From positions 2,218 to 66,217 of the IMG/VR virus record IMGVR_UViG_3300020577_005362: a DNA stretch of 64,000 nucleotides; one strand, given 5' to 3'. Positions 1,382-62,808 of this stretch are shown one piece after another. Positions within the stretch are counted from its first letter, which is position 1; each line of letters starts with the position of its first letter. The translations under genes were made by a program, and so were the position numbers. The notes below the pieces were generated by a model. The model was given only the letters and a program-made list of their open reading frames with translations. It made no database searches and was not told where the DNA came from. The DNA comes from a virus.

Positions 1382-1593
1382 CCATCCTTTTCGACATCGA
1401 CGGCATGCGCGCCATTACTGCGACCTGCGATCTTGAGGCTCACGGGCTCGCCCTGCGCCGTTTCGTGGCCGACGTGGAGCGCGGCGGCTCGATCCCGTCC
1501 TCGCCGCCCAGCGACCTCCAGGGGCCTGCGCGCGACTGCTACATGCAGCTCGCCTCAATCGCGCGCATCGAGGAGGGCGCCCATGTTGACTAG
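1378..1593 (+). CDS. Hypothetical phage protein
   Basis: Overlapping start/stop with neighbours. Confidence 0.55.
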   Translation: MTILFDIDGMRAITATCDLEAHGLALRRFVADVERGGSIPSSPPSDLQGPARDCYMQLASIARIEEGAHVD

Positions 1594-2689
1594 GCTCCCC
1601 TCGAACCACAACGGCGGCCCGTCCTTGGAAGAGGACGAGAGCGGCGACTTCCGCATCCGCTACATGCGCATCCACATCAACGACTGGCGCGCCTCGACGG
1701 CAAATCTGCTGCCCGAGCAGGGCTGGCTGTTCCTCAAGCTGATGATGGAGATGTATGACCGGGGCGGTCCCTTGCCCAACGACGACGCCTACAACGCGCG
1801 TCTGGTCGGCTTCGAAATCCGCACCTACCGGCGCGTGCTCCGTCAGCTGATCTTGATGGGCAAGATCCACGTCGCGCAGATGCAGCCCGCCGACAAGGGC
1901 ACGCTGTTCCACCCGCGCACGATACGCGAAATCGAGCAGGCGGTTTTGGAGCACAAGAAGCGTCGCGCGGCCGCCCTTCAGCGCGAGGAAGATCGGCGTA
2001 AAGGGGCTCGTGTTGCTGATGAGATCCGGCCGACTTCGGGCGGACTTCCGGCCGACTTCCGGCCGACTTCGGCCGAACTTCCGGCCGACTTCCAGCCGAA
2101 GTCCGGCGAACTTCTGCCCGAGCTAAGCCCCGATCTTTCCGAAAAAGTCAATGAAATCAATGGGTGCGCCGCCACGACTGTGACCACAAGCGGACCACAG
2201 CCCTCGCGGGCGCGCGCGTTTCCTAAGCCTAAGCCAATAAAGAAAGAAGAAGAAAGAGCGGCGCCTAGCGACGCCGCCGATGCTCTCCAACCTTTGGTCA
2301 GGGGGAGCGTGCGGTGGGCGTACAACGCCTACAACGAGGTCGCCAATCGGATCGGTCTCCCGCTCGCCGTCGCGCTCACCGAAGCGCGCGTCAAGGCGAT
2401 CCGTGTCCGGCTCAAGGAGTTCGGGCCCGAGGGGTGGGAGACGGCGCTCGCCAACATCGAGCGCAACCCGTTCATGCGCGGCCGCAACGACCGCGGCTGG
2501 CGCGCAAGCCTCGACTACGTGCTCCAGGCCAAGAGCTACGCCAAGCTCGTCGAGGGCGCCGCAGGGCGCCGTGATGTCGGGCTGCGGCCTGCGCAGGCTG
2601 CCGATCTCGCGAAGGTCTACGAGGACGACCAGTTCGCCCGCGACCTTGAGAAGGCCGCTGCGCTCGAGCGCGGGGACTTCAATCAATGA
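1583..2689 (+). CDS. Phage replication initiator, DUF1376/YdaU family
   Basis: RBS aggagg before ATG 1583; N-terminal YMRIHINDWRASTANL..EQGWLFLKLMMEMYDRGGPLPNDD; C-terminal FMRGRNDRGWRASLDYVL; internal iterons. Confidence 0.85.
   Translation: MLTRLPSNHNGGPSLEEDESGDFRIRYMRIHINDWRASTANLLPEQGWLFLKLMMEMYDRGGPLPNDDAYNARLVGFEIRTYRRVLRQLILMGKIHVAQMQPADKGTLFHPRTIREIEQAVLEHKKRRAAALQREEDRRKGARVADEIRPTSGGLPADFRPTSAELPADFQPKSGELLPELSPDLSEKVNEINGCAATTVTTSGPQPSRARAFPKPKPIKKEEERAAPSDAADALQPLVRGSVRWAYNAYNEVANRIGLPLAVALTEARVKAIRVRLKEFGPEGWETALANIERNPFMRGRNDRGWRASLDYVLQAKSYAKLVEGAAGRRDVGLRPAQAADLAKVYEDDQFARDLEKAAALERGDFNQ
2027..2114 (+). repeat. Eight tandem 11-bp iterons (consensus CGGCCGACTTC), putative replication origin
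   Basis: Units at 2027, 2038, 2049, 2060, 2071, 2082, 2093, 2104; A-rich tracts follow at about 2141-2160 and 2236-2257. Confidence 0.8.
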
Positions 2690-3312
2690 AAACCCTTGCC
2701 CAGCTTCTCGCCGACGAGGGGATCACGTTTCGGCACGCCCCGCGCACCGGCCAGAACGCCACCATCTGCCCCAAGTGCTCGCACCTCCGAAAGCCGATGA
2801 ACAGGCGAAAGCCCTGCCTCGGCGTCCACATCGACGACCGAGGCATCCGAGCCCACTGCGCGCACTGCCACCACACCGCTGCACGATTTTTCGACGAGGA
2901 CGAGAATGCTGGATCAGGTCAGGACCGAGCTACAGTTGAGCGAACGGCACGCCATGTGGCTCGAGGACGTGCGAAAGATCCCGTGCGAACTGGCGGCCGA
3001 GTTGGGGATCGTGTCGAAGGGTCCGCACCTCGCGTTCGAGTATCGTCGGCACGGACAGTTGCTGTTTCGACAGATCCGCAAGGAGCTGCCGGGCGGCGAC
3101 AAGACGTTCCGGCTGGAGGCCCCGGACGGCCGCACGCTCAAGGAAGCGGGCATCGGGCTGTCGTTCTGGCAGGAGGACGACCTGACCGGGTCGTCGTCAC
3201 CGGATGTTCCCAGGATCATCACGGAAGGCCAGTTCGACACGGCGGCGTTTCGACTGGCGGGCTTTCCGCTCGTCGGATCTGTACCGAACGGCGCGAGCGG
3301 CCGACCGAGTGA
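2686..3312 (+). CDS. Primase zinc-binding domain (T7 gp4/Twinkle-type N-terminus); only the first ~70 aa look genuine
   Basis: ICPKCSHLRK..PCLGVHID..AHCAHCH Zn-finger; remainder overlaps the next gene out of frame. Confidence 0.7.
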   Translation: MKTLAQLLADEGITFRHAPRTGQNATICPKCSHLRKPMNRRKPCLGVHIDDRGIRAHCAHCHHTAARFFDEDENAGSGQDRATVERTARHVARGRAKDPVRTGGRVGDRVEGSAPRVRVSSARTVAVSTDPQGAAGRRQDVPAGGPGRPHAQGSGHRAVVLAGGRPDRVVVTGCSQDHHGRPVRHGGVSTGGLSARRICTERRERPTE

Positions 3313-4465
3313 AGGCGAGATCGTCGCGGCCGAGGATACCGGGTTCTCGTATCTGTGGGAGTTCGACGAGGCGGCCGACAAGTGGCGCCTGCGCGGCGGG
3401 CTCGCAACGTGCGCGCGGATCATCCTAGCGACGGACGGCGACAAAGCCGGGCGCGTCCTGCGCGACGAGCTCGCCGTTCGCCTTGGCCGCGATCGGTGCT
3501 GGGTCGTCGAGTATCCCGAAGGCGAGATCGGCGGGCATCCGATCAAGGACGCGAACGACGTTCTGCGCAAGTGGGGCGCAGACGAGGGCTGCGAGCGCTT
3601 GCGCGACATGGTGGCCGACGCCCGCCCGCTCGTTGCTCCGACGCTCGTGCCGATGTCGCAGATCCCCGAGGTCAAGCGCGAATATCTGCGTACCGGCTGG
3701 AAAGAACTCGACACCCACCTCAAGGTGACGCGTCCCGAATTGATGATCGTTTCGGGACCTCCAGGTGACGGCAAATCGCAATTCGTCACCGCGTTGGGTG
3801 CGAGCCTCGCTTATCTGCACGGATGGAAGGGCGCCGTTCTCCAGTTCGAGGACGACGTCGAGCGCATCCGTGAGGACTTCGTGAAGTTCTGGTGCGGGCG
3901 GCGCGAGGCTGATCCGACAGTCGCAGAAAACCGTGCGCAGGCGCTCGCCTGGGTCGACCAACAGTTTCGAACTGTCTCGCCCGACGAGAGCGAAGGCGAG
4001 CACCGTTTCGATCTGTCTTGGCTCGACGCGAAGCTGACCGAGGCTGCGCGCGTGCATGGGTGCCAGTTCGCCGTGATCGATCCTTGGAACGAGGTCGAGC
4101 ACGCTTGGCACAAGGGCATCACCGAGACGCAGTACCTCAACGATGCGCTGCGCAATTTGAAGCGCACGTCGCGTCGACTGTCGATGTGCCTGATCATTGT
4201 CACGCACCCCGACAAGGCGGCGGGCCGCATCAAGGATATCGAGGAATGGGATCTCTATTCGATCTCCGGTGGGCAGGCTTGGAACAACAAAGCCGATCAC
4301 GGCATCATCGTGCTGCGCCCTGACAAGGAGAAGCGCGAGACCTTTATCAAGGTCTCGAAGTCCAAGCGCCATCTCGTGATGGGGCGCCCCGGCATAGTCG
4401 TCATGCGCCTCAATCCGCTCAAAGCTACCTACGAGTTCGTAGGGCACCACGAGGGGACGCAATGA
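2906..4465 (+). CDS. TOPRIM primase plus DnaB-like (SF4) helicase, Twinkle/T7 gp4-like
   Basis: IITEGQFD, SVPNGA, ILATDGDKAG, KDANDVL, Walker A SGPPGDGKS, VIDPWN, IVTHP, ISGGQAWNNKAD. Confidence 0.92.
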   Translation: MLDQVRTELQLSERHAMWLEDVRKIPCELAAELGIVSKGPHLAFEYRRHGQLLFRQIRKELPGGDKTFRLEAPDGRTLKEAGIGLSFWQEDDLTGSSSPDVPRIITEGQFDTAAFRLAGFPLVGSVPNGASGRPSEGEIVAAEDTGFSYLWEFDEAADKWRLRGGLATCARIILATDGDKAGRVLRDELAVRLGRDRCWVVEYPEGEIGGHPIKDANDVLRKWGADEGCERLRDMVADARPLVAPTLVPMSQIPEVKREYLRTGWKELDTHLKVTRPELMIVSGPPGDGKSQFVTALGASLAYLHGWKGAVLQFEDDVERIREDFVKFWCGRREADPTVAENRAQALAWVDQQFRTVSPDESEGEHRFDLSWLDAKLTEAARVHGCQFAVIDPWNEVEHAWHKGITETQYLNDALRNLKRTSRRLSMCLIIVTHPDKAAGRIKDIEEWDLYSISGGQAWNNKADHGIIVLRPDKEKRETFIKVSKSKRHLVMGRPGIVVMRLNPLKATYEFVGHHEGTQ

Positions 4466-4761
4466 TCGTCGACGATCTCGCTGAGCGCCAGAACGCGCTG
4501 CGCCTCTTCAACGAGTACATGAGTGCGGTTGATGCGCTTGTGGTTGCGTATCACGCGGGCGCCACTGCGGACGAGATCGACGAACTTACCGCCGCCGTCA
4601 ACGAAGCGGAGCGGGTCTACGACGATTGCGGCTACGAGCTCGACTGCGACTATTCCGACGAGCCGACGATCTGCGCGCGCACCGGCACGCCGATCATCAT
4701 TGGCGACAAGGTCATCCACGACATGACCACGAACGAGGTTTTTCTGCGCGTGTGCGTCTGA
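4462..4761 (+). CDS. Hypothetical acidic protein
   Basis: ATGA overlap with the helicase stop. Confidence 0.6.
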   Translation: MIVDDLAERQNALRLFNEYMSAVDALVVAYHAGATADEIDELTAAVNEAERVYDDCGYELDCDYSDEPTICARTGTPIIIGDKVIHDMTTNEVFLRVCV

Positions 4762-4785
4762 CTGAGAGAGAAAAGGGCAAAGGGC

Positions 4786-5280
4786 ATGAACGAAGCAAAT
4801 CTGATGGGGAATGTGGGAGCAGACCCCGAAATCAAGGAAACGAAAGGCGGCAAGAAGTTCGCAAGCTTCTCGCTCGCCACGTCGGAGCGCTGGACTGACA
4901 AGGCGACCGGCGAAAAGAAGGAAGTGACGACCTGGCACCGCTGCATCGTATGGAACGAGAACCTTGTTCCGGTTGTCGAGCAGTACGTGCGCAAGGGGTC
5001 GCAACTGTTCGTGCGCGGGCAGATCACGATCCGCGAATGGCACAAGGAAGGCACGCCGCAAGACGACCGTCGCTGGCAAACGGAAATCACGTTGAACGGC
5101 TTCAGCGCCGTGCTCCGGCTGCTCGGCAAGGCAGGCAACGGCAGCAACCGCGCGCCAGATCCTGAAGAGCCCAAGCGCGATTATGCCCGCCCGCCCGCCA
5201 ATGGAAACGGTTCGGCACCGTCCCGCTCCTTCGATCGCACGATGGACGACGAGATCCCCTTTGCGCCGGAGGTCCGCTAA
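4786..5280 (+). CDS. ssb: Single-stranded DNA-binding protein
   Basis: LMGNVGADPE, FSLATSERW, TWHRC, VRKGSQLFVRG, acidic tail MDDEIPF. Confidence 0.97.
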   Translation: MNEANLMGNVGADPEIKETKGGKKFASFSLATSERWTDKATGEKKEVTTWHRCIVWNENLVPVVEQYVRKGSQLFVRGQITIREWHKEGTPQDDRRWQTEITLNGFSAVLRLLGKAGNGSNRAPDPEEPKRDYARPPANGNGSAPSRSFDRTMDDEIPFAPEVR

Positions 5281-6405
5281 ATGCAGTTCAAAGCTGAAAA
5301 CCGCGCGTTCGCCGACGCGCTCGACCTGGTCAAGGGCGCGATCCGCCCCTCGACCGTCCCGATCCTCTCCCACGTGTGCGTGACGGCCAGCGATGGCGTC
5401 GTGACGTTGCGCGCCAACAACCTCGACCGCGAAACGGAAGCCTCGTTCCGGGCAGAGGTAACGCGAGAAGGGTCGGCCGCACTTCCGGGCGAGATCCTGG
5501 CGGGCATCGTGCGCCGCCTGCCAAAGGGCGGCGACTGCACGCTCGACCTGCGCGACGAGGTCGCCGAGCTCACCTCGCGCAAGTCGGTCTACAAGCTGCG
5601 CTCGCTGCCCGCCGACGACTTTCCGAAGGGTCGCCGGATCACTGGCGAGGCGGCGGTATTCGAGATGGACGGCGCCACCTTCCGCGATCTGCTGCGCCAT
5701 GTGGCCTATCCAGCGAACGAAACCCACCCGAAGCAGTACAGCCGCGGCGTCTACCTGCACGCGCACGAGGGTAAGCTGGCTGCGACGGCGACGGACGGTC
5801 ACCGGCTCGCACTCGTCGAGGTGGATCTGCCGGAGGGTGCGGCCGAGTTCCCCGAGATGATAATCCCGGCCAGCACGGTCAAGGCGATCCTCGAACTCAC
5901 CGCCAAGGTTGACCGGGTGGTGGTGGCGGGGACGCGACATGCGATCGAGGTGCGCGTCGAAGGCGCCCGGCTCACCAGCGCGCTCGTCGATTGCGCCTAT
6001 CCCGACTACCGCAAGGTCATTCCGAAGCGCAACGGCGCGGCGGCCGTGTTCCGCCCCGACAGTATGAGCGAGGCCCTGGATCGTGCGGCGACAGTCTATC
6101 TCGGCCGCAGCGATCCGAACAAGCTCGCCCCGACCGTCAAGATCACGGCGGGTGACGACAGCATCGAACTCGTCGCGGGCATCGCCGGTGGCGAGCGCGG
6201 CCTTGAGACAGTCGAGGCGGACATCAACGAGCATCCGCTCGAGGTGTCGGTCGTGACGACCTACTTGGCCGAGATGCTGAAGCAGTGGCCGGAGACCACC
6301 GACCTCGCGATCCAGCATGGCGGCGGCATGGGTCCGGTGCTGTTTTGCGCCGCAGCGATGCCGAACGTCACCCACCTGATCATGCCGACGAAGCCGACCC
6401 TTTAA
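5281..6405 (+). CDS. dnaN: DNA polymerase III beta sliding clamp homolog
   Basis: 374 aa; TVPILSHV, LPADDFP, ATDGHRLA, YPDYRKVIP, C-terminal LIMP. Confidence 0.92.
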   Translation: MQFKAENRAFADALDLVKGAIRPSTVPILSHVCVTASDGVVTLRANNLDRETEASFRAEVTREGSAALPGEILAGIVRRLPKGGDCTLDLRDEVAELTSRKSVYKLRSLPADDFPKGRRITGEAAVFEMDGATFRDLLRHVAYPANETHPKQYSRGVYLHAHEGKLAATATDGHRLALVEVDLPEGAAEFPEMIIPASTVKAILELTAKVDRVVVAGTRHAIEVRVEGARLTSALVDCAYPDYRKVIPKRNGAAAVFRPDSMSEALDRAATVYLGRSDPNKLAPTVKITAGDDSIELVAGIAGGERGLETVEADINEHPLEVSVVTTYLAEMLKQWPETTDLAIQHGGGMGPVLFCAAAMPNVTHLIMPTKPTL

Positions 6406-6427
6406 GCCTGCGACTGCAACCAACGGA

Positions 6428-6829
6428 GTGAAAGACATGACCGCGACTGCCATCGCGACTGCGACTGCCCTCGAAACCTTGAAGCGGATCGCAAAGCCGA
6501 TCCCGTTTGCGCCGAACGATGAACCCGAGGCGGAACTGTCGAACATTCTGACCCTGCTCAAGTCCGAGCGCTTTAAGGAAGCAACAGAGCGCGTTGATCG
6601 AATGCTGGTGATGAAACTGGTCGCCGAAGCATCGCACGACCTGCAGGAGCGGATCGACGAACTGGATCACGAGATCGAGGGGCTGGATCACGAGATCGAG
6701 GGGCTGGGCGACGAAAACAGCAGCCTTCAATCGGAGAAAGACGATCTTGAGGACAAGGTCGCGGAGCTTGAGACCAAGATCAGCAAGCTGGAGGACGAAA
6801 TCGAAGAACTGAAGGGCGCCGGCGCATGA
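6428..6829 (+). CDS. Acidic coiled-coil protein with a 21-bp tandem duplication
   Basis: Heptad repeats LDHEIEGLDHEIEG. Confidence 0.65.
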   Translation: MKDMTATAIATATALETLKRIAKPIPFAPNDEPEAELSNILTLLKSERFKEATERVDRMLVMKLVAEASHDLQERIDELDHEIEGLDHEIEGLGDENSSLQSEKDDLEDKVAELETKISKLEDEIEELKGAGA

Positions 6830-8220
6830 GCTACGAAGAGTTCATTGCGCGGAAGTCCGCCATCGCGAAGCCGGTCGGGTTCACTCCCGATCGGAGGCGC
6901 TTTCCGCAAGCCATGAAACCGTTCCAACGCGATATCGCGACGTGGGCGTGCAAGCGGGGCAAGGCTGCCGTGTTTGCGGGCACGGGTCTCGGCAAAACCC
7001 TGATGGAACTGTCGTGGGCGTCTCAGGTCGCGCATCACACCGAAGGGCGTGTGCTGGTGTTCACCCCGTTGGCCGTGGCCGAGCAGACGGTGCAAGAGGC
7101 GCGCAAGTTCGGCATCGCCGATGTCGCCTATGCGCCCGATCATGCGAGCAGTTCGACGCAGATCGTCGTCACGAACTACGACCGGCGCGACAAGTTCGAC
7201 ATCGGCCAGTTCGCCGGCGTCGTCTGCGACGAAAGCGGCATCCTGAAAGACCACGCGAGCCGAACCCGCATGGAATTGACGGAGGCGTGTAGCGGCGTCT
7301 CTTACCTGTTGTGCGGCTCGGCAACACCGGCGCCGAACGACTGGACCGAACTCGGCCAGCATGCGGAGTTCCTGGGCGTCATGTCCGCCAAGGAAATGCT
7401 CGCCATGTATTTCGTCCACGAAGGCGCGCTGCGTGCAGACGCCGAAGAGGATTGGCGTTTGAAGGGGCATGCCGCAAAGGACTTCTGGCGCTGGGTGGCG
7501 TCGTGGTCCGTCATGATCCGGCATCCGCGCGATCTGGGCTACGAAGAGGACGGCTACGACCTGCCGCCCCTCGACATGGTGCAGATCACCGTCGAAGGCG
7601 ACCGCAAGCCCCGTGAGGGCGAACTGTTCGCGGAAGACGCGGCAACTCTGCGCGAGCAGCTTCAGGTCCGCAAGGACACGATTGCCGAGCGTGTGGCTGC
7701 CGCTGCCGATCTCGTGGCGCAGGAGCCGAACGAACCCTGGCTGATCTGGTGTCACCTCAACGCGGAAGCGGAAGCGCTCACGGCGGCGATCCCCGGCTCC
7801 GTGAACGTCGAGGGCTCCGATACGATCGAGCACAAGACGACGAACCTTCTGGGCTTTGCCAAGGGCACGCCGCGCATTCTCGTGAGCAAACCGAAGATCG
7901 CGGCGCGCGGGATGAACTACCAGAACTGCGCGCGGACCATCTTCGTCGGCATGAACCACTCGTTTGAAGAGCTGTTTCAGGCTGTCCGCCGCTTGTGGCG
8001 CTTCGGCCAGGTCCGGCCCGTCAAGGCGTATCTCATTGCGTCCGATCTCGAAGGCGCTGTCGTCGCGAACCTGCAAGCCAAGGAACGGAAATATGAAGCG
8101 ATGGCGGAAGCCATGGCCGAGCACATGAAGGACTTGAGCAAGAAGGCCGTGCGCGGTGGGCGCATTGCTGTTTCCGACTACAAACCGAACACGAAGATGG
8201 GGATGCCGTCATGGATGTAA
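6826..8220 (+). CDS. SNF2-family helicase
   Basis: GTGLGKT, VVCDES, SATPAPN, GMNYQ, QAVRRLWRFGQ. Confidence 0.92.
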   Translation: MSYEEFIARKSAIAKPVGFTPDRRRFPQAMKPFQRDIATWACKRGKAAVFAGTGLGKTLMELSWASQVAHHTEGRVLVFTPLAVAEQTVQEARKFGIADVAYAPDHASSSTQIVVTNYDRRDKFDIGQFAGVVCDESGILKDHASRTRMELTEACSGVSYLLCGSATPAPNDWTELGQHAEFLGVMSAKEMLAMYFVHEGALRADAEEDWRLKGHAAKDFWRWVASWSVMIRHPRDLGYEEDGYDLPPLDMVQITVEGDRKPREGELFAEDAATLREQLQVRKDTIAERVAAAADLVAQEPNEPWLIWCHLNAEAEALTAAIPGSVNVEGSDTIEHKTTNLLGFAKGTPRILVSKPKIAARGMNYQNCARTIFVGMNHSFEELFQAVRRLWRFGQVRPVKAYLIASDLEGAVVANLQAKERKYEAMAEAMAEHMKDLSKKAVRGGRIAVSDYKPNTKMGMPSWM

Positions 8221-9197
8221 ATGTGTTGGACAAGGCCGAGGGCCGGGACTGGTGGATCGCAAATGGTGACTGCGTGGACGTGGCGCGCGGGCTGCCGGAC
8301 GATAGCGTCGGGCTTACCGTGTTTTCCCCGCCGTTTGAAAGTCTCTACACCTTCAGTGATCACCCGCGCGATATGTCGAATTGCCCGAACCCCGAGACGT
8401 TCTGGGAACACTTCGGGTTTCTGATCGAGCAGCTTTACCGCATCACCAAGCCAGGCCGCCTGTGCGCCGTGCATTGCATGCCGCTGCCAACTTCAAAAAC
8501 GCGCGACGGCTACATCGGTATCCGCGACTTCCCTGGCGAGGTCATCCGCGCCTTTCAGGCGCACGGCTGGATTTTTCATTCCGAGGTGGTGATCTTCAAG
8601 GACCCCGTCACGGCGATGCAGCGCACGAAGGCGATCGGGCTTCTGCACAAGCAGATCAAGAAGGACAGTGCACTGAGCCGGATGGGGTTCGCCGACTACG
8701 TGGTGGTGATGCGCAAGCCGGGCGACAACGCCGAGCCGGTAGAAGGCGCGTTCGATGCTTACTATGGCGACGAAACGTCCGTAAAAGGTCCACTCACGAC
8801 CGAGACGGGCAAAATCCGCAGCGTGAACGTGCCGGGCGACGAATGGTATTCGGTGGCAGTGTGGCAGCGCTACGCTTCCCCCGTTTGGATGGACATCAAC
8901 CAGTCCGACGTACTGTCGCACAAGATGGCGCGCGACGAACAGGACGAGCGGCACATCTCGCCGTTGCAGTTGACCGTCATTCGCCGGTGTATCGATCTCT
9001 GGTCGAACCCTGGCGACGTGGTGTTCTCGCCGTTTGCTGGCATCGGCTCCGAACTCTATTGCGCGGTGCAGATGGGCCGCAAGGCTGTGGGGGCAGAGCT
9101 CAAGGCGTCGTATTTCCGGCAGGCGGTCGCAAACCTCGGATCGCTGAAGGCCGAGCAGACTGTCGACATCTTTTCGACTGTCGAGGCCGCCGAATGA
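8211..9197 (+). CDS. DNA N6-adenine/N4-cytosine methyltransferase (beta class)
   Basis: Catalytic FSPPF near N-terminus; SAM-binding VFSPFAGIGSE near C-terminus. Confidence 0.92.
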   Translation: MDVNVLDKAEGRDWWIANGDCVDVARGLPDDSVGLTVFSPPFESLYTFSDHPRDMSNCPNPETFWEHFGFLIEQLYRITKPGRLCAVHCMPLPTSKTRDGYIGIRDFPGEVIRAFQAHGWIFHSEVVIFKDPVTAMQRTKAIGLLHKQIKKDSALSRMGFADYVVVMRKPGDNAEPVEGAFDAYYGDETSVKGPLTTETGKIRSVNVPGDEWYSVAVWQRYASPVWMDINQSDVLSHKMARDEQDERHISPLQLTVIRRCIDLWSNPGDVVFSPFAGIGSELYCAVQMGRKAVGAELKASYFRQAVANLGSLKAEQTVDIFSTVEAAE

Positions 9198-15880: not shown

Positions 15881-16027
15881 GAGCATGGCGATCAATCCGG
15901 TGCCCTCAAGAAAAAGGACCGGATGGACGAACCCCACATCCATGCCGCGCGCAAGGTGATCGAGCACATGAAACTGTGCGGCTACGTGATCACGCCGCCG
16001 GACGCCACGCAGCCGCACAAGACATAA

Positions 16028-16291
16028 TCATAGCGCCGACGTTTTCGACATCATCGGATCGCTGCGATCCGCAACGGTCTCACGAACCTCAATGTGACCT
16101 CGGCTTGCCAGATCTGATAAGGAGCGCGCTAGTCGATTTCGCGTCTCCACGTCAGGCAAATGGCCCAGAGCATCGGCGGCGTCCGCAAAAATGCGCGCCT
16201 CCAATTCGTCGATAAACACGGCCTCCGGTTTTACTCGGCAATCCGCGAAAACCGAATAAATCCCCGCGGCAGTCTCTTCGTAGCGTCGCAT
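16028..16291 (-). CDS. Hypothetical protein
   Basis: ORF with purine-rich upstream region. Confidence 0.45.
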   Translation of the reverse strand: MRRYEETAAGIYSVFADCRVKPEAVFIDELEARIFADAADALGHLPDVETRNRLARSLSDLASRGHIEVRETVADRSDPMMSKTSAL

Positions 16292-16426
16292 TTCGTGCTT
16301 GCCTTTCTCTTCACGCGCCACCCCTCATTGGCTAAAAACGGAAATGGCCGCCCAAGCCATTTCCCCCGCAACACGCGCATCATCTCACCCGACCGTCGCG
16401 CGGCCAAGTCCTGAGCCCACAACATC

Positions 16427-16560
16427 GAAAACAGTGGTGCCACGCGGACACTGTTTCGGCCAACTCCTGTGGAAAACATGGACAGTCGAGAAACAGTTCG
16501 AAACCGACAAAGAAAAAGCCCCGGCCTTTTGGACCGGGGCGAAACGGTGCGAAACCGTTC
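16427..16560. repeat. Cluster of GAAACNGT-like repeats
   Basis: Copies at 16490, 16500, 16541, 16551 (10-bp-spaced pairs), inverted at 16450-16457, variant at 16427. Confidence 0.6.
16508..16540 (-). terminator. Intrinsic terminator for 16560..17498
   Basis: gccccggtcc-aaaa-ggccggggc followed by TTTTTCTTT on the minus strand. Confidence 0.75.
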
Positions 16561-17498
16561 TAGTGCATCAGGCTGATTTGGACCTCGCGACCGACACGCT
16601 CCCTGCGGAGCAATTTCTGCCGGTCGGAAACCCACTTCGACGCCGTGCTCTTGGAAACCTGCAACATGGCGGCAAGTTCGTCGTTGGTGACGGGCTTACC
16701 GACAGTGCGAAGAGCCTCAACGACCGGATCGACCTCGATGACGACTTCCTGCTTGGGGGCAGGCAGAACCTTCATCGTGCCGCCAGTCGGCATCGTCGGC
16801 GCGGCGATCTTGATGACTTTCGTGTGGCCGAAGCCAAGGCCGAAGAACACGATTGTCGCCAGTTCCAAGATCAGCGCCTTGGCGAGCGGGGTGATGAGAC
16901 CGATGGCCTTTTCGATCTCCTGAACCGGAGCGCGAATGACGAGCGCGACTAGCTCGGCAGTGTACCGCAGTTCTCCGTTCGCCTGCTCCGAGGGTTGCAG
17001 CCTATCAAGACGAACCTCGTAGAGGCGGACTTGATCGTCAGCCGCTTCGAGTGCAGTCTTCAACCCATCGCAGCGAAGCCCTTTACCCGACGCGCACTCC
17101 TTGGCGAGATTGGCGCTTGCGGATGCACGCGCGTCGCGGGCCTTCTTGAGTTCGATCTCGGCGTCCTTGCGGGCATCCGCGATCTTCGTGGCCTCGGCCT
17201 CCCGATGCTGGGCAACCTTGGCGGCGCGTCCGGCCGAACCCGAGACGCAGAAGTAAGTGCCACCTGCAAAAACCAACGCCAGCCCAATCGCCGACATCAG
17301 CCTAAGTGCCTTGACCGCAGGCCAGAACATATGTCCGGCTGCAATCGTGCCCAAGATCACCAGCACAGTCATCACGTGGTCGGTCGTGAATTCTGCGCCG
17401 TGCCGCACGTCATCGAGGATGACTGCGGTCGTGCCGAGGGCGAAAATCGCTCCGAGACCCATTGCAGGCCAGGAACGAATGGTGGTAGTATATGCCAT
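16560..17498 (-). CDS. Multi-TM/coiled-coil/TM/winged-helix protein
   Basis: Three N-terminal hydrophobic helices, coiled coil with C-x6-C, fourth TM, C-terminal VTNDELAAMLQVSKSTASKWV HTH. Confidence 0.8.
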   Translation of the reverse strand: MAYTTTIRSWPAMGLGAIFALGTTAVILDDVRHGAEFTTDHVMTVLVILGTIAAGHMFWPAVKALRLMSAIGLALVFAGGTYFCVSGSAGRAAKVAQHREAEATKIADARKDAEIELKKARDARASASANLAKECASGKGLRCDGLKTALEAADDQVRLYEVRLDRLQPSEQANGELRYTAELVALVIRAPVQEIEKAIGLITPLAKALILELATIVFFGLGFGHTKVIKIAAPTMPTGGTMKVLPAPKQEVVIEVDPVVEALRTVGKPVTNDELAAMLQVSKSTASKWVSDRQKLLRRERVGREVQISLMH

Positions 17499-17585
17499 AG
17501 TCGCTAACTCCCTTGGTGGGGTGGTTGGATGACAGTCAAGGCTCGGGAGGGTTGCGCCCCTTCCGGGCCTTTCGCATTTCTGATG

Positions 17586-17639
17586 GGCCTCATCAGCTAC
17601 CGCTTTACGGTAGGACCGGGATTGCTCCCGGTTTCGGCC
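17586..17639 (-). ncRNA. Type II hammerhead ribozyme
   Basis: Minus strand GGCC-GAAA-CCGGGA(gcaa)UCCCGG-UC/CUACCG(uaaag)CGGUAG-CUGAUGA-GGCC: all core nucleotides and three stems present; predicted cut between 17614 and 17613. Confidence 0.92.
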
Positions 17640-17786
17640 TTAGCTGTGCACTGGTAGCGACCACATTGCGAGGTTGGCCAGATTGAGCGCCACCCACCCC
17701 CATTGCCCGTTAAGCGCGAACGCCAGGATCAGGAGAAGGCAGACCGGGATCATGACCCACCGAAGCACGCGGAAAAACTTGTCCAT
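17640..17786 (-). CDS. 48-aa two-TM peptide
   Basis: MDKFFRVLRWVMIPVCLLLILAFALNGQWGWVALNLANLAMWSLPVHS; RBS gaggtg; stop abuts the hammerhead. Confidence 0.7.
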   Translation of the reverse strand: MDKFFRVLRWVMIPVCLLLILAFALNGQWGWVALNLANLAMWSLPVHS

Positions 17787-17807
17787 TTCACACCTCTACT
17801 GTTGGCA

Positions 17808-17915
17808 GTAACCTTAATGTAACCCATCCGGTTACATAAATCAAGTAGTACGCACCGTCGTTCCGATCAATTTTTTGTGATCTAATAGGGTCTATTAGAA
17901 CTCATCCGGTTACGT
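17808..17915. promoter_or_regulatory. Leftward promoter with palindromic operator; second operator copy before the RHH gene
   Basis: Minus TTGATT-N17-TACATT (17844-17816) with GTAACC-n5-GGTTAC (17819-17835) in the spacer; CATCCGGTTAC repeated at about 17903-17913. Confidence 0.7.
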
Positions 17916-17927
17916 TATATACAAGCC

Positions 17928-18116
17928 ATGAAAACACCGCGTAGAGGCCGCCCGCCTAAACAGGGCAAACCGCTGATGGCAGCGCTTACGATCCGCATGC
18001 CGCAGGCGATGATGGATGAGATCGAGCGCCGCGCCGTCGATCAGGCTGATAACGGCAAAGACAAAGCCGACATCATCCGCGAACTTATTGCGCGGGGGCT
18101 TGGTTGGGCAAAATGA
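17928..18116 (+). CDS. Ribbon-helix-helix (Arc/CopG-like) regulator, probably leaderless
   Basis: RRGRPP, LTIRMPQAMMDEIERRA, KADIIRELIARGL. Confidence 0.8.
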   Translation: MKTPRRGRPPKQGKPLMAALTIRMPQAMMDEIERRAVDQADNGKDKADIIRELIARGLGWAK

Positions 18117-18336
18117 AAGCGCGGGGCCATGTTACGCGATGACGTCAAGCGTAGGCCTGACCAAGGTCGGGTATTCGAGTGATCCGGCTCGTCGTGCGCA
18201 GCAAATATACGGCAAAGGCACAGTTGCGGTCGCGTTCCTCGATTATTTTCGACATGTCGTCGCAATCGACATGACGCAGGCCACGTGTCTACGTTTTGCG
18301 GTTTCGTCGACATATCGTGATTACGGTTATGTCTAA
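18113..18336 (+). pseudogene. Frameshifted GIY-YIG/T5orf172-like nuclease fragment
   Basis: MKARGHV joins YAMTSSVGLTKVGYSSDPARRAQQ if one T is restored near 18131. Confidence 0.55.
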
Positions 18337-18447
18337 GCCAGAACAAAAATACCGCGTCATCGCACCGCATATATTATGCGATAATAGGGCTATTCTAAAA
18401 ACACGAACCATGTAATACGTCTTGTGCTCTGGTTAATCTGGAGCATT

Positions 18448-18488
18448 GCGCCCGCGAGCCGAAAGGTTCTCGCGGGCGTTTGCATTTC
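18448..18488 (+). terminator. Intrinsic terminator
   Basis: gcgcccgcgag-cc-gaaa-gg-tt-ctcgcgggcg followed by tttgcattt. Confidence 0.7.
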
Positions 18489-18528
18489 TGCATCGGCCCG
18501 CAGAATGTTCTGGGAATTGTTCTTGTTT

Positions 18529-18544
18529 CGTTTCACGTGAAACA
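18529..18544. promoter_or_regulatory. parS: Chromosomal-type parS site
   Basis: CGTTTCACGTGAAACA, 15/16 match to consensus TGTTTCACGTGAAACA, intergenic. Confidence 0.75.
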
Positions 18545-18752
18545 GTCAGGAAACAGTTTCCCGGCGCTCGAACTCTCCGCAGTCGCCCGTCCCACGACAC
18601 ACACCCGCGATCACCGTATCCGCAAAAGGTGGGCACGCCGAGCAAACCCGGAGAACCGAGCGCCCGCGCGGGCAGGCGCCAAACGCATGACGCCTCGGTC
18701 AAGCTTTCGCTAGCACCGAGGCGTTGGCAGTCCATGCGATACGCAACACACG

Positions 18753-19286
18753 ATGACGCAACTCACTAACCCGACCACCATCGCTGGTGCGTTTGACGAA
18801 AGGGCGGCAGAAATGGGCGAGTTTCAAGGCAGGCGGCGGTGTACGTTCCCCAAATGCGGCTGCGTAGGCAGTTGCACCCTGGCGAAGAACGTCACGCCCC
18901 CGGTGGTCTATGAGGACGTGCGCAAAGCGCTTCCCCTCGTGAGGCCCCCGGTCGTGGTGGTGCGCGCCAAGCGCAGCAACCCGCCCGCCTCCCTTTCTTC
19001 GACCTACACCCAATTCAACGGCGAGCCCTGCCCCTACTGCGACCGTCCGATGGACACGCGGTCTTGGACGCTCGCGCCCTCGACCGACCACATCAATCCG
19101 ACCAGCCGAGGCGGCAGCGACAAGCCAGCGAACAAGCTTGTGGTTTGCCGTGGCTGCAACGAGGCCAAATCGGGACGCACGCTAGCCGAGTTCCAGGCCT
19201 ACCTGGCCGACCGTCGAGACCCGCGCGCAGCTCACGTGCAGCGCGTCCTCGACAGTCGGCAGACGGCGACCGAAGCCGCCGAATAG
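18753..19286 (+). CDS. HNH endonuclease upstream of the packaging genes
   Basis: CPYC..STDHINPTSRGGSDKPANKLVVCRGCNEAKS. Confidence 0.88.
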   Translation: MTQLTNPTTIAGAFDERAAEMGEFQGRRRCTFPKCGCVGSCTLAKNVTPPVVYEDVRKALPLVRPPVVVVRAKRSNPPASLSSTYTQFNGEPCPYCDRPMDTRSWTLAPSTDHINPTSRGGSDKPANKLVVCRGCNEAKSGRTLAEFQAYLADRRDPRAAHVQRVLDSRQTATEAAE

Positions 19287-20255: not shown

Positions 20256-20828
20256 ATGGCTAGTAAAAACAAGGGGAAGGCCCAGGTTCAAAAGTCCCGC
20301 AAGACGAAGCGCGACACGAGCCCGAAGCAGGCGGCCAAGGACATCGAGCGCATGGAGTGGATCGATACCGCTCTCGCGCTGCGCCGCAAGGCGTGGAACT
20401 ACCGCCGCATCGCCGCTGAAATGTCCAAGCCCAAGGGCGAAGGCCACGGCATCGGACGGTCGGTCGCGTTCTCGACTGTCGCGAAATGGGTCAAGGAGGG
20501 GATGGACATGATCCCCGTCGAGAATGCCGAGATCGTCAAGCAGATGCACCTCGACCGCCTCGACGAACTGATGCGCATGACATGGCGCGAAGTTGAGGAA
20601 GCCGACGAGGCCAACGAGGGCGTATCGCCCGCAGTCTTCAGCCGCGTGATGCGCATCATGGACCGGCAGGCCCAATATATCGGCCTCTACGCGCCGGAGG
20701 GTGGCGGCAGCGCTGCCAACCGCATCGCGGACGCGTTCGCCGACCCCGACAACTACGCGAAGATCGTCGCCGCCAGCGCGCCGACCATCAGCCCAGATGG
20801 GCCCATGCCCGTCAATCCGATCCTTTAG
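20256..20828 (+). CDS. terS: Terminase small subunit
   Basis: ALALRRKAWNYRRIA HTH, IMDRQAQYIGLYAP motif; directly upstream of terL. Confidence 0.75.
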   Translation: MASKNKGKAQVQKSRKTKRDTSPKQAAKDIERMEWIDTALALRRKAWNYRRIAAEMSKPKGEGHGIGRSVAFSTVAKWVKEGMDMIPVENAEIVKQMHLDRLDELMRMTWREVEEADEANEGVSPAVFSRVMRIMDRQAQYIGLYAPEGGGSAANRIADAFADPDNYAKIVAASAPTISPDGPMPVNPIL

Positions 20829-20877
20829 TCGCCGCGAAACGGACCTCGAGGGGCCTGGGCGGCAGGAGTGCCACCCC

Positions 20878-22248
20878 ATGCAGCTTCGACTTGCCGACAA
20901 GCCGAGCGCTGTTTCGCCCGCCGCGATACAGCTCACTCGAAAGCAAGCCAACATTTTCGTGTTTGGCTGGCAACCCTACGCGCGTTTTCGCTACGCCGTC
21001 TGCGGCCGCCGCTTCGGCAAGACCTATCTAGCCGTCGAGGAGATCAAGCGCGCTTACCGGCTCGCGGTGAAGCACAACATTCACCCCGACAACGAGATCT
21101 GGTACGGCGCGCCAATATTCAAACAGGCCAAGCGCGTGTTCTGGAACCGCCTCAAGCGTGCAATCCCAGAGGATTGGCTGGGTGGCAAACCCAACAACAC
21201 CGAATGCGTGTTGCCGATGCGCTGCGGCCGGATCATCCGGCTCGTCGGTCTCGATGATATCGACGCCCTGCGCGGCTCGGGCCTGTGGTTCTTTGTCGGC
21301 GACGAGTGGGACGACGCCAAGCCCGAAGCCTGGACCGAAGCCATTCGGCCCATGCTCGCGAGCGCCAACGGCCACGCGCTGAAGATCGGCACGCCCAAGG
21401 GTTTCGGCATGCTCTACGACGGGTTTTGCGACGGCCAGCCAGGCCGCTTCAAGCCAGGCGAGCAGCAGTATGTCGCCGAGATCCAGGGTCGCGACCCGTT
21501 CACGATGTCGTGGAAGTACAATTCCATCGAGGGCGGCAACGTCCCTCAGCACGAAATCGACCACGCCCGGCGCACGCTCGACCCCCGCACCTTTCGCCAG
21601 GAATGGGAAGCGAGTTTCGAGACCTATTCGGGCCGCGTCTACTACGACTTCGACCGGCGCGAGAGCGTTCGTCCGATCTCCTACGACCCCGGCCGACCCA
21701 TCCACATTGGGCTGGATTTCAACGTCAACCCGATGTCGGCGACGCTGTTTCAGGAGCGGATCGAGGGCGGCAAGGTGATCTCGGAGATGTTCCGCGAGAT
21801 CGTCATCCCGACTTCGAACACGCACGAAATGGCGCGCGAGATTTCGACGCTCTTTCCGCAGGCCTTCAAGGACAAGCAGATCTGGATCTATCCCGACCCC
21901 GCCGGCGCGCAGAACCGCACGTCGGCACAGGGCGAGACCGATATCTCGATCCTGCGCAAGTCCGGCTTTCACGTCTACGCGATGTCGACGCATCCGCTGG
22001 TTCGCGACCGCGTCAACCTCGTCAACGGCCGCATCAAGTCGGCGGACGGCGATCGCCACCTGTTCGTCGATCCGTCCTGCCGACAGGCGATCAAGTCGCT
22101 CGAGCGCCACGTCTACAAGGAAGGCACGAGCGAGCCCGAGAAGGGCGAATTCGACCACTTGAACGATGCCGTGGGCTACTACGCATACACCCGTTTCGCC
22201 CACCAACGCGCGCACACCGCGGCCGTCGCGCCGCACATGACCCGATAA
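20878..22248 (+). CDS. terL: Terminase large subunit
   Basis: Walker A CGRRFGKT, LRGSGL..VGDE, IGTPKG, RNase H-like IGLDFN, DHLNDAVGY. Confidence 0.96.
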   Translation: MQLRLADKPSAVSPAAIQLTRKQANIFVFGWQPYARFRYAVCGRRFGKTYLAVEEIKRAYRLAVKHNIHPDNEIWYGAPIFKQAKRVFWNRLKRAIPEDWLGGKPNNTECVLPMRCGRIIRLVGLDDIDALRGSGLWFFVGDEWDDAKPEAWTEAIRPMLASANGHALKIGTPKGFGMLYDGFCDGQPGRFKPGEQQYVAEIQGRDPFTMSWKYNSIEGGNVPQHEIDHARRTLDPRTFRQEWEASFETYSGRVYYDFDRRESVRPISYDPGRPIHIGLDFNVNPMSATLFQERIEGGKVISEMFREIVIPTSNTHEMAREISTLFPQAFKDKQIWIYPDPAGAQNRTSAQGETDISILRKSGFHVYAMSTHPLVRDRVNLVNGRIKSADGDRHLFVDPSCRQAIKSLERHVYKEGTSEPEKGEFDHLNDAVGYYAYTRFAHQRAHTAAVAPHMTR

Positions 22249-51838: not shown

Positions 51839-52900
51839 TCACGGCGCTTCCTCCCCCGCACGCTTCATCGGCACTACCGGACCCTCGATCAGCACCGGCA
51901 GTCTGTTCACGGCAGCGGCTACGTCACCCCGGATGACGTGCAGGTAGCGCATCGTGGTCTCGATCTTGGAGTGGCCCAGCGCTTGCTGGATCACATGCAA
52001 CCCTGCGCCCTTGTGGCCGAGCCAGGTCGCAAACGTGTGCCGCATATCGTGCCAGCGGAAATCGACGATGCCCGCGAGCTTCAGGGCGCGCTCCCAATGC
52101 TTGCGCCGGTTCGTGCAGTTGAAGACCTCGACCCCCGACGGGTCGGCCAATTGCAGGATGGCGACAGCGTTGGCGTCGATCGGCACGAAGCGGGTGCCCC
52201 CACCCTTCTTGAAGACCTCGGCTTGCATGGTGTCGTAGTTGACGCGGTCCCAGCGCAGCGTCTCGGTTTCGTCGAGACGGCATCCGGTCGTCAGTGACCA
52301 TGCCACCATCAGGTTGATGTGGGCCGGCAGGCGCTGAAGGACGCGCTTGGCTTCGTCGAGGGTGATGTGGCGCACACGCACGTCGGGCTCGGCCCGCAGG
52401 AGCGCCTTGAATTTGATCCTCTGCGTCGGGAGATCCCACACGTCGGAGGCCTTGTTGTAGATCTGCCGGAAGACAGCAAGGCGTCGGTTGACGGTGCTCT
52501 CGCTTGGCTTGCCGGGGCGCTCGCTGCCCCCGCGATTGGTGCGAACGGTCTTGGCGGCGTACGCCTCGAGCATCGCAGCCACGTCCGAGGTTTTCAGTTC
52601 GCAGAACATGGCGTCGGCGCCGAAGTGGTTCTCCATCTCGATCATATGCGCCTTCACACCCGTGTCCTTGAGCTTGTGGCCGTAGTTTTTCCAATAGCGT
52701 GCGAACACGTCGCCTACTGTGGATCGTCGGGGGTCCAGTCGCTCCAGTGCAATTTGTTGGAGGGCGTCGTCGCGCGCCTTCCGTTCGACGGCGCGGGCCT
52801 CCGTTTTGGATGCACAGTGCGTAGAGCCTCTAAAGCGTTGATTGTTGATTTCAAATTCGTAGTGGTAGTTGGGGCTTCCTGGTCGCCGGTAAACTGACAC
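51839..52900 (-). CDS. int: Tyrosine integrase
   Basis: TGCR, HDMRHTFATWL, LGHSKIETTMRY; N-terminal arm-binding domain. Confidence 0.97.
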   Translation of the reverse strand: MSVYRRPGSPNYHYEFEINNQRFRGSTHCASKTEARAVERKARDDALQQIALERLDPRRSTVGDVFARYWKNYGHKLKDTGVKAHMIEMENHFGADAMFCELKTSDVAAMLEAYAAKTVRTNRGGSERPGKPSESTVNRRLAVFRQIYNKASDVWDLPTQRIKFKALLRAEPDVRVRHITLDEAKRVLQRLPAHINLMVAWSLTTGCRLDETETLRWDRVNYDTMQAEVFKKGGGTRFVPIDANAVAILQLADPSGVEVFNCTNRRKHWERALKLAGIVDFRWHDMRHTFATWLGHKGAGLHVIQQALGHSKIETTMRYLHVIRGDVAAAVNRLPVLIEGPVVPMKRAGEEAP

Positions 52901-62664: not shown

Positions 62665-62808
62665 TCACTCCCTTTCCTCACGTTTCGCCTTCCTTTCCGC
62701 CTTTTTGATTTGGTCCCGCATCTTCGTGGCGGCGACCCCTTTGTCCTTGGGACGGTAGGCGAGAACGCGACTGGTGATCGCGTCGAGTGCTTTCAGGATT
62801 TCGGTCAT
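62665..62808 (-). CDS. Small ORF downstream of the IS1595 transposase
   Basis: MTEILKALDAITSRVLAYRPK; ATGA-coupled. Confidence 0.6.
   Translation of the reverse strand: MTEILKALDAITSRVLAYRPKDKGVAATKMRDQIKKAERKAKREERE

Follow-up and report, generated by a model that had tools for sequence, protein, structure and literature searches.

We analyzed a 64,000-nucleotide stretch of viral DNA, here called the window, which comprises bases 2218-66217 of the linear, 66,217-base IMG/VR virus record IMGVR_UViG_3300020577_005362 (completeness estimate 79%). At 16427-18560 we found a leftward operon in which a hammerhead ribozyme separates a small open reading frame (ORF) from the last gene, which encodes a membrane protein carrying a winged helix-turn-helix (wHTH). 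We consider it probable, at roughly 60%, that this locus is a self-contained accessory cassette, or 'moron', of a temperate phage, with a ribozyme-processed mRNA and the membrane-wHTH protein as its last gene. The original prediction, made from the letters of this DNA, had described the locus as one module in which a membrane-anchored DNA-binding protein acts with flanking repeats and a partition site (parS). All the parts that it listed are present in the sequence, namely the ribbon-helix-helix (RHH) gene, the palindrome, the 48-aa ORF, the hammerhead, the hairpin, the gene with transmembrane (TM) helices, coiled coil and wHTH, the terminator, the repeats and the parS-like site. In our best reading, the cassette is not an integrated parS/repeat tethering machine. 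The features of the cassette are as follows, with window coordinates and strand.

17928-18116 (+), gene for a 62-aa RHH protein, recognized with RHH_1 and PHROG 4738
17787-17927 (no strand), divergent control region with palindromes and a direct repeat
17640-17786 (-), 48-aa hydrophobic ORF, the first leftward cistron, whose stop codon abuts the hammerhead
17586-17639 (-), type II hammerhead ribozyme of the short-stem-I subclass, recognized with a descriptor, the R1 model and an RF02276 alignment
17580-17596 (-), alternative hairpin of the minimum-energy fold, formed by the core word CUGAUG and the CAUCAG immediately 3' of stem II
17540-17569 (-), GC-rich hairpin in the 5' untranslated region (5'UTR), with its 3' end some 30-40 nt ahead of the ATG, from per-sequence folding and family comparison
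16560-17498 (-), gene for the 312-aa membrane protein, from the ORF and an AF2 model
16518-16540 (-), intrinsic terminator of the leftward operon, with a 9-pair stem (8 G-C pairs) and then a T run

The hammerhead begins at the base directly after the TAA stop codon of the 48-aa ORF. Its core is complete, with CUGANGA, GAAA and the U-H cleavage site 3' of stem III (C at 17614), and stems II, III and I have 4, 7 and 7 contiguous pairs, the A15.1-U16.1 pair among them. Loops close stem III and stem I, a short hairpin of 17 nt, and stem II is open. Mispairs next to the core are absent, in agreement with the rejection rule given in the methods of PMC3088659. The cut is predicted 3' of C17614, between 17614 and 17613. 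A descriptor that combined the motifs CUGANGA and GAAA with three stems of no fewer than 4 pairs each (III closed and ending in U-H, I closed, II open) matched once in the window and in 0 of 300 dinucleotide shuffles. R1, a covariance model built from 66 distinct short-stem-I viral hammerheads with the window excluded, scored the element at 61.8 bits (E 4e-17), and 17586-17639(-) was the only real R1 hit in the window and in the entire virus record. The Rfam model RF02276 aligned full-length to a 141-nt slice at 24.5 bits and missed its gathering threshold of 37. Judged by its core, its stems and its R1 score, the element is a genuine type II hammerhead of the short-stem-I subclass.

Such ribozymes are common in viral sequence. 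A pattern that leaves the stems free matched at least 120 viral contigs; a fixed-geometry pattern found no match among viral contigs. Among the matches listed, 105 of 120 contigs have all three stems, yielding 153 hammerheads, and 70 of these have a short stem I hairpin (<=18 nt). When nine viral loci were scanned with Rfam, the long-stem-I forms (L053 and L020) were caught, 3 of 9 hammerhead copies were called in L038, and none were called in L055, L050, L064, L056, L137 and L078. The window hammerhead lies below the Rfam threshold because the short-stem-I subclass is under-called, which is a property of the subclass. Covariation was counted on an alignment (A3) solely to show the diversity of pair types, as its sequences were picked by a pairing descriptor and the count is circular for pairing. 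Contigs of other metagenomes (records 4 and 6 of run X4, record 19 of run X6) match about 17577-17643 only and diverge on both sides, which indicates that the ribozyme is conserved as a block. Separately, in one X4 contig the 3' end of the hammerhead (17586) is joined to sequence similar to the wHTH-coding part (16620-16697, with 17 differences). The joint 16697/17586 may reflect another arrangement of hammerhead and wHTH or a spurious short match.

The short-stem-I hammerheads show a further recurrent element. A tail complementary to the first five letters of the core was found within the 18 nt 3' of stem II in 10 of the 66 short-stem-I hammerheads, where about one would be expected, and 0 of 2000 flank shuffles reached 10. 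One of these cases is compensatory, with CUGAC facing GUCAG. The tail is also present, as CAUCAG, in the window (17580-17585) and in the related locus L263 described below. Going by its pairing, the tail would form a recurrent, core-sequestering hairpin, which may represent either a fold forming after a co-transcriptional cut or one competing with the cut.

The 5'UTR of the last gene contains a second conserved structure. Folding of the window and 13 related loci gave a GC-rich hairpin of 11-19 pairs within -80 to -25 at all of them except L001. The 3' end of this leader hairpin lies 24-45 nt before the ATG, and the z-scores of the individual folds range from -1.0 to -4.3. The outer stems vary among loci, and an AAC word was seen by eye in 10 of 13 loops. 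The copies do not align in register, and RNAalifold on MAFFT alignments therefore returned no consensus; conservation was judged from per-sequence folds, without a covariation statistic. The next structure 3' of the leader hairpin is a small hairpin with the ribosome site in it.

We compared the locus with 22 related loci, namely L001-L016 (32-57% identity), which came from a search seeded with a 12-row family alignment, together with L263 and L265-L269; L003 and L004 are near duplicates, as are L007 and L009. With R1, a hammerhead was found beside the family gene in one of the 22, L263, a Hyphomicrobium prophage in the same metagenome-assembled genome (MAG) as L001, located ahead of large ORFs that by eye resemble terminase and portal genes. 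The minus-strand operon of L263 starts at a divergent 79-aa RHH-like gene, which is 37% identical to the window RHH (E 2e-4). It continues with three ORFs of 99, 50 and 81 aa, each followed by a hammerhead, the last of which comes after the stop codon of the 81-aa ORF. These three type II hammerheads (L263:2309-2927, the same as L270:9587-10205) have R1 scores of 48.4, 28.9 and 33 bits, with 48.4 bits for the last one, ahead of the family gene. Located 3' of it are a CAUCAG-AAA tail and a GC-rich leader hairpin, and then the gene of a 367-aa family member, which is preceded by a ribosome site and followed by a strong terminator. Between the window and L263, the core, stem II, the tail, and the outer stem and loop word of the leader hairpin do not vary; stems I and III differ completely in sequence and nevertheless pair, which is compensatory change. 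At L263, the co-occurrence of parts proposed in the original prediction is borne out for the RHH gene, hammerhead, hairpin, membrane-protein gene and terminator.

Other relatives have parts of this arrangement. L012 has a divergent RHH gene (41% identical, E 1.5e-8), the leader hairpin and the gene, and lacks a hammerhead; L006 has a weak RHH match. The 48-aa TM ORF, which has a GAGG-type ribosome site 6 nt 5' of its ATG, has no counterpart in L001-L016. We found one homologue of it in 5.8 billion clusters (P0034, 71% identical and of equal length). The ORF before the last L263 hammerhead encodes an 81-aa non-membrane protein. The proposal that self-cleavage tunes the ratio of two membrane proteins is not upheld as a general feature. 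In L008 (926-1264) and L013 (331-495), an unrelated small ORF with two TM helices, a terminator-like hairpin and an extra small hairpin lie upstream of the leader hairpin; small membrane ORFs thus precede the family gene more than once, without being similar in sequence. The neighbors of the relatives are varied, including a tRNA at L001, L012 and L269, tail and endolysin-like genes on either side at L003, and tail-fibre-like genes at L002 and L005 (protein-coding neighbors named by eye). In the window, the GC content at third codon positions (GC3) of the 312-aa gene is 0.73, compared with about 0.8-0.9 in most structural genes. The cassette's own terminator, its lower GC3 and the varied neighbors of its relatives constitute an accessory 'moron' signature. 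As judged from these loci, the recurring unit is the leader hairpin and gene broadly, with the RHH gene in some loci and the hammerhead in one lineage.

The AF2 model of the 312-aa protein (pLDDT 87.2) confirmed the layout of TM helices, coiled coil and wHTH. TM1 (residues 10-32) and TM2 (39-63) are followed by TM3 running into a long helix (67-134), a hairpin tip with the conserved C135 and C143, a return helix (141-166), TM4 (192-222), a low-confidence flexible linker and the wHTH (258-310). Both cysteines are almost invariant across the family. The elements of the wHTH (helices 258-266, 272-279 and 283-292, strands 297-302 and 305-310) have a pLDDT of about 95. Foldseek matches against the PDB were confined to the wHTH, and the top structural matches were SmtB, ZitR, MarR and NolR (probability 1.00, E 0.04-0.2). 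By sequence profile, the window protein was below the cut-off for a MarR/ArsR-type wHTH, its best match being HTH_17 at 19.3 bits against 27. HTH_IclR and MarR_2 were each matched by 8 of 32 family members (E <= 0.01). Matches to DUF4407 (PF14362) were below the 31.3-bit cut-off for the window protein (11 bits) and the L263 protein (15.2), with 1 of 32 members at E 0.0025, and we treat a relationship of the two families as a lead only. The charged loops (KALR after TM2, HTKVIK after TM4 and an acidic loop 1), read with the positive-inside rule, would place the N-terminus and the MarR-like wHTH in the cytoplasm and the helical hairpin of ~100 residues with its Cys pair in the periplasm. A periplasmic position would suit the Cys pair.

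The family of this protein is large, mostly viral and unnamed, with no Pfam model for the membrane part. A profile search gave 1540 cluster representatives at E <= 0.001, including 532 at E <= 1e-30, and ten representative family proteins that were looked up had no name attached to any of them. The whole fold is similar to uncharacterised BFVD phage proteins (E 2.7e-4, TMq 0.51) and to several mostly viral ESM Atlas clusters. The closest relatives (P0002-P0007) are 61-81% identical, the nearest cellular relatives come from Hyphomicrobium MAGs, and a homologue is present in 6 of 401 genomes of one bacterial order. A second gene of the phage (L139:2009-3130 in full, of which 2-913 in the window), at the head of the replication operon and directly after CI/Cro/GcrA-like genes, codes for a 373-aa protein with the same layout. 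It has TM helices, a coiled coil, a TM helix, a Pro-rich linker and a C-terminal wHTH, and is distantly similar to the 312-aa family, with which hhalign aligned it over TM3 to TM4 (probability 75%, E 2.6e-5).

If the cassette works as we propose, leftward transcription would start in the control region that it shares with the rightward RHH repressor gene, and self-cleavage after C17614 would cut the message in two. Its downstream part would have a 5'-OH end and begin with the stem I hairpin, followed by a second hairpin burying the CUGAUGA core and by the GC-rich 5'UTR hairpin. Were the message split in this way in vivo, we propose that the last gene would no longer be coupled to the upstream ORF in stability or translation. 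The last gene would give an inner-membrane protein with a cytoplasmic wHTH and a periplasmic helical hairpin. As to its role, we suggest tentatively that it might be a prophage-made, membrane-tethered DNA-binding protein acting at the inner membrane, for example in superinfection exclusion at genome entry.

A more far-reaching version would see here an undescribed class of proteins for capturing or holding DNA at the membrane, controlled through the leader hairpin and, in one lineage, by a hammerhead switch that releases the leader. The TM/helical-hairpin/TM/wHTH proteins would exclude superinfecting genomes or anchor the phage's own DNA. Their synthesis would be set post-transcriptionally by the leader hairpin with its AAC loop, bound by the protein or a partner. 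The hammerhead with its core-sequestering tail would be a one-shot switch freeing the leader as a stable mRNA 5' end. Taken as one joint claim, this is doubtful.

Several results weigh against the cassette reading or against parts of it. At the gathering score, Rfam reported no hammerhead in the whole window, and at E <= 10 none was reported in a 2.5-kb scan of 16300-18800. In the minimum-energy fold, the catalytic core enters the competing hairpin and stem II is unformed; stem II has merely 4 pairs. No complementarity between loop I and the 3' tail that would form a pseudoknot was seen, by eye only. The hammerhead was not found by R1 in 21 of the 22 related loci, where the proposed co-occurrence fails, and the family can therefore do without the ribozyme. 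No sigma-70-like promoter was found in 16000-19000, and of the operator palindrome that had been placed inside the leftward promoter, the palindrome is present (17814-17840) and the promoter position is a presumed one. Some relatives have no wHTH or a different one, and the tblastn matches in L003-L005 stop near residue 234-248; roles that depend on DNA binding are weakened by the absence of the wHTH. The second protein is encoded in the early replication operon, which is at least as compatible with a function in replication or DNA anchoring as with one in exclusion. Finally, PADLOC-DB 2.0 at E <= 1 gave no match for the 312-aa, 48-aa and RHH products or for the product of a 97-aa ORF at 16028-16321(-).

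The repeats around the cassette invite other explanations, for which the following features are needed.

16479-16557 (no strand), left repeat cluster, bracketing the terminator
18524-18560 (no strand), right repeat cluster of GAAAC/GTTTC units, including the pair 18539/18550 and the parS-like palindrome
18753-19286, HNH endonuclease gene
20701-22248, terminase large-subunit ORF

The word GAAACNGT occurs 25 times in the window against 5.7 expected, and 0 of 100 shuffles had as many. Same-strand GAAAC pairs spaced 10-11 nt occur exactly three times in the window, at 16490, 16541 and 18539, where we estimate that ~0.2 would be expected by chance. The left cluster consists of a 28-nt direct repeat in two copies (16479-16506 and 16530-16557) that are 79% alike and each contain two GAAAC 10 nt apart, and a further inverted pair is located at 16429-16436 and 16449-16456. 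The right cluster holds an exact 14-nt parS-like palindrome (18530-18543), which occurs once and matches 14/14 of the core and 15/16 of the canonical site. GAAAC-containing near-palindromes were also observed inside the AAA_25/KaiC-type ATPase gene (3961-4018, two copies 41 nt apart) and in the 5' part of the second TM-wHTH gene (40-130), and these could be iteron-like sites. Elsewhere, CGACAGTCG with its reverse complement is the commonest 9-mer, with 21 copies dispersed across the whole window; together with GAAACWGT, this suggests that ACWGT-containing words are favored genome-wide. The GAAAC and parS-like sites could be bound by the RHH protein, by one of the two wHTH proteins, by host ParB or by a late regulator.

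One explanation is that the right repeat cluster and the parS-like site belong to the late/packaging region, as a site for a regulator, the terminase or a host factor, and that their adjacency to the cassette is positional. The cluster lies ~200 nt ahead of the HNH gene, after which comes the terminase large-subunit ORF. In an unrelated viral contig, a composite of parS and GAAAC nearly identical to window 18529-18556 (L140:2060-2085) lies 10 nt upstream of a 508-aa terminase-like gene. The canonical 16-nt parS was found in at least 119 viral contigs (L142-L260), which shows that parS in viral sequence is not unusual in these data. Several of these contigs, such as L162, L201, L147 and L161, have 2-5 copies within a few kb, and might be phage-plasmids, or regions around host origins that were filed as viral. 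In a further unrelated viral contig, a perfect 16-nt parS abuts a type II hammerhead (L141:2464-2532, R1 34.7 bits). Against this, the left cluster has the same units at the other end of the cassette, far from the packaging genes. L140 is moreover the only comparable locus, and its protein was named by eye rather than by family search. On balance, we find this explanation rather unlikely.

A second alternative concerns the control region. Here the protein would be a membrane-tethered transcription factor whose periplasmic hairpin senses an envelope or infection signal and whose wHTH, with or against the RHH protein, acts on the palindromes of the control region. The wHTH is of the MarR/IclR type, and the control region contains two kinds of palindrome and a repeated half-site. 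The first palindrome (17814-17824 / 17830-17840) has 11-nt arms that are 91% complementary and lies 28-54 nt ahead of the leftward ORF, the second is located at 17876-17904, and a 15-nt direct repeat has copies at 17821-17835 and 17899-17913. A near-identical strain from run X4 (1282-nt contig) has 8 changes, each a T>C or A>G and each located within 17797-17910; two of them hit the same position of both direct-repeat copies (17832 and 17910), and the surrounding coding sequence is unchanged. In addition, an 8-letter word ~10 nt before the RHH start is shared by the window and, as its reverse complement, L263. Against this reading, a divergent RHH gene or comparable control region is missing in most relatives, as is the wHTH in some, and the RHH protein alone would suffice to explain the operators. 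This protein matched Pfam RHH_1 (PF01402) at 20.6 bits, above the 20.5-bit cut-off (E 4.4e-4), and PHROG 4738, 'transcriptional repressor' (E 7.8e-6). Its candidate sites are 17814-17840, 17876-17904 or the GAAAC pairs. We regard a membrane-tethered transcription factor as unlikely. On the plus strand 3' of the RHH gene, a perfect 10-pair hairpin followed by a T-rich stretch (18449-18478) looks like a terminator but failed the terminator scan.

The original prediction had proposed that the wHTH binds the GAAACNGT pairs and, with host ParB at parS, tethers phage DNA to the membrane, or that the protein is a DNA-gated pore, with the ribozyme setting the ratio of the membrane proteins. The GAAAC pairs are non-random and flank the cassette on both sides, the parS-like palindrome is exact over 14 nt, the model would place the wHTH in the cytoplasm on a flexible tether, and the control region of L012 holds an inverted GAAAC/GTTTC pair. 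There are also precedents: phi29 p16.7 anchors replicating phage DNA to the membrane (PMC4974454), and Streptomyces SpdB2, according to the account of it in PMC4447253, is an oligomerising, pore-forming protein with four predicted TM helices and non-specific dsDNA binding. Against this, neither GAAAC pairs nor parS were found in L001-L016 or in the 18 kb around L263 (L270), and the 48-aa ORF is not kept with the gene. No ParB_N domain was found in the virus record, and an integrase is present, with which plasmid-like partition is not obviously needed. The near-identical parS and GAAAC composite ahead of the terminase-like gene of an unrelated phage also argues against a link with the cassette. 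We regard tethering through these sites as improbable, and the claim that the repeats and parS are parts of the module was not supported by the comparison. The GAAAC pairs and the parS-like palindrome are real sites, but by their distribution they are features of this phage rather than of the conserved unit.

That the hammerhead is a chance or decayed, non-cleaving look-alike among intergenic hairpins of ordinary mRNA structure, as its score under the Rfam gathering threshold, the competing hairpin and a chance rate of about one such motif per some hundred thousand windows (our own arithmetic) might suggest, is very improbable given the full core, the 61.8 bits with an independent model, the L263 copy with wholly different, still paired stems, and the discrete block in other contigs.

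The preferred reading, an accessory cassette, agrees with the setting of the locus. The virus is a temperate phage with an integrase gene at 51839-52900(-). The left contig end beyond the window carries CI-like S24 repressor, Cro-like and GcrA-like genes (named by eye from translations), and the main CI/Cro-type switch of the phage is located outside the 16427-18560 region. Replication genes occupy 1433-9197 and include DUF1376, the AAA_25/KaiC-type ATPase, a pol III beta clamp, an SNF2 helicase and a methylase. The cassette lies between the replication block and the packaging block (HNH/terminase), on the strand opposite to its neighbors. The 97-aa ORF has no family match and is situated beyond two terminator-like hairpins, and was excluded as a member of the cassette. 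Weak Rfam 'sRNA' matches in the region were merely the terminator at 16518-16540. No DNA match to the region or protein match to the 312-aa protein was found in phage GenBank records. Close to the right end of the window there is an IS1595-family transposase gene (62805-63722; DDE_Tnp_IS1595, E 9e-47).

We compared the parts of the locus with known systems. SNIPE is a membrane-located defence with a nuclease that acts on injected DNA (bioRxiv 10.1101/2025.11.03.685801). By analogy, the 312-aa protein may share the notion of a membrane-bound, DNA-directed protein acting where the phage genome enters; unlike SNIPE as presented there, it has neither a nuclease domain nor a PADLOC family. Like p16.7 and SpdB2, it is an integral membrane protein with a coiled coil and a DNA-binding part that is encoded by a mobile element, a likeness of layout only. 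It differs from them in domain order and DNA-binding fold, and Pfam gave no p16.7/SpdB2/DUF2637-type sequence relationship for it or for 32 family members. The 14-nt palindrome equals the core of chromosomal parS, and the same 16-mer occurs in L140 and L141. Unlike chromosomal parS, the window site is in a phage without a ParB_N gene and is embedded in GAAAC repeats resembling parS half-sites. The small RHH gene with palindromes and repeated half-sites between divergent genes resembles the RHH repressors (CopG/Arc/Mnt-type) at divergent phage promoters. The very large phage family of membrane-anchored winged-helix proteins to which the 312-aa protein belongs is nameless and has no Pfam model for its membrane part. 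If the family does act on DNA at the membrane, it would bear on superinfection exclusion and on the handling of phage genomes at the cell envelope.

The closest known counterpart of the ribozyme is the type II hammerhead of prophage operons (Perreault et al. 2011, PMC3088659; Rfam RF02276). Arrays of prophage hammerheads flank genes 'whose identities are not constant' and were proposed in that paper to cut long transcripts into shorter mRNAs. Most type II motifs have potential pseudoknots between loop I and the 3' tail, and ~40% of all hammerheads likely use one (PMC3088659). The original prediction knew of no description of its combination of parts. This stands for the combination, as our literature search, judged from paper listings, found no publication linking a hammerhead to a membrane wHTH gene; it does not stand for a hammerhead inside a prophage operon, which PMC3088659 describes. 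Prophage-operon hammerheads have been known since 2011, and this locus offers a tractable case for the study of their role, with a single ribozyme abutting a stop codon, the same leader hairpin and kind of gene in two phages, and a tail covering the core.

The window hammerhead shares with the prophage hammerheads of PMC3088659 the core, the type II topology and the sense orientation between phage cistrons, and L263, like them, has three in a row flanking small ORFs. Set against the type II motifs as characterized in that paper, the window hammerhead has a 17-nt stem I, no loop I/3'-tail pseudoknot seen by eye and a core-complementary tail. Judged by sequence comparison, two aspects are new here: a hammerhead subclass that is under-called by Rfam, common in viral contigs and mostly missed at its threshold, and the core-complementary tail. 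Unlike the hammerheads in the arrays discussed in PMC3088659, the window ribozyme is tied to a particular gene and a particular 5'UTR hairpin. As far as the comparison of the two loci goes, it is likewise new that two diverged phages have a ribozyme linked to the same leader hairpin and the same gene family.

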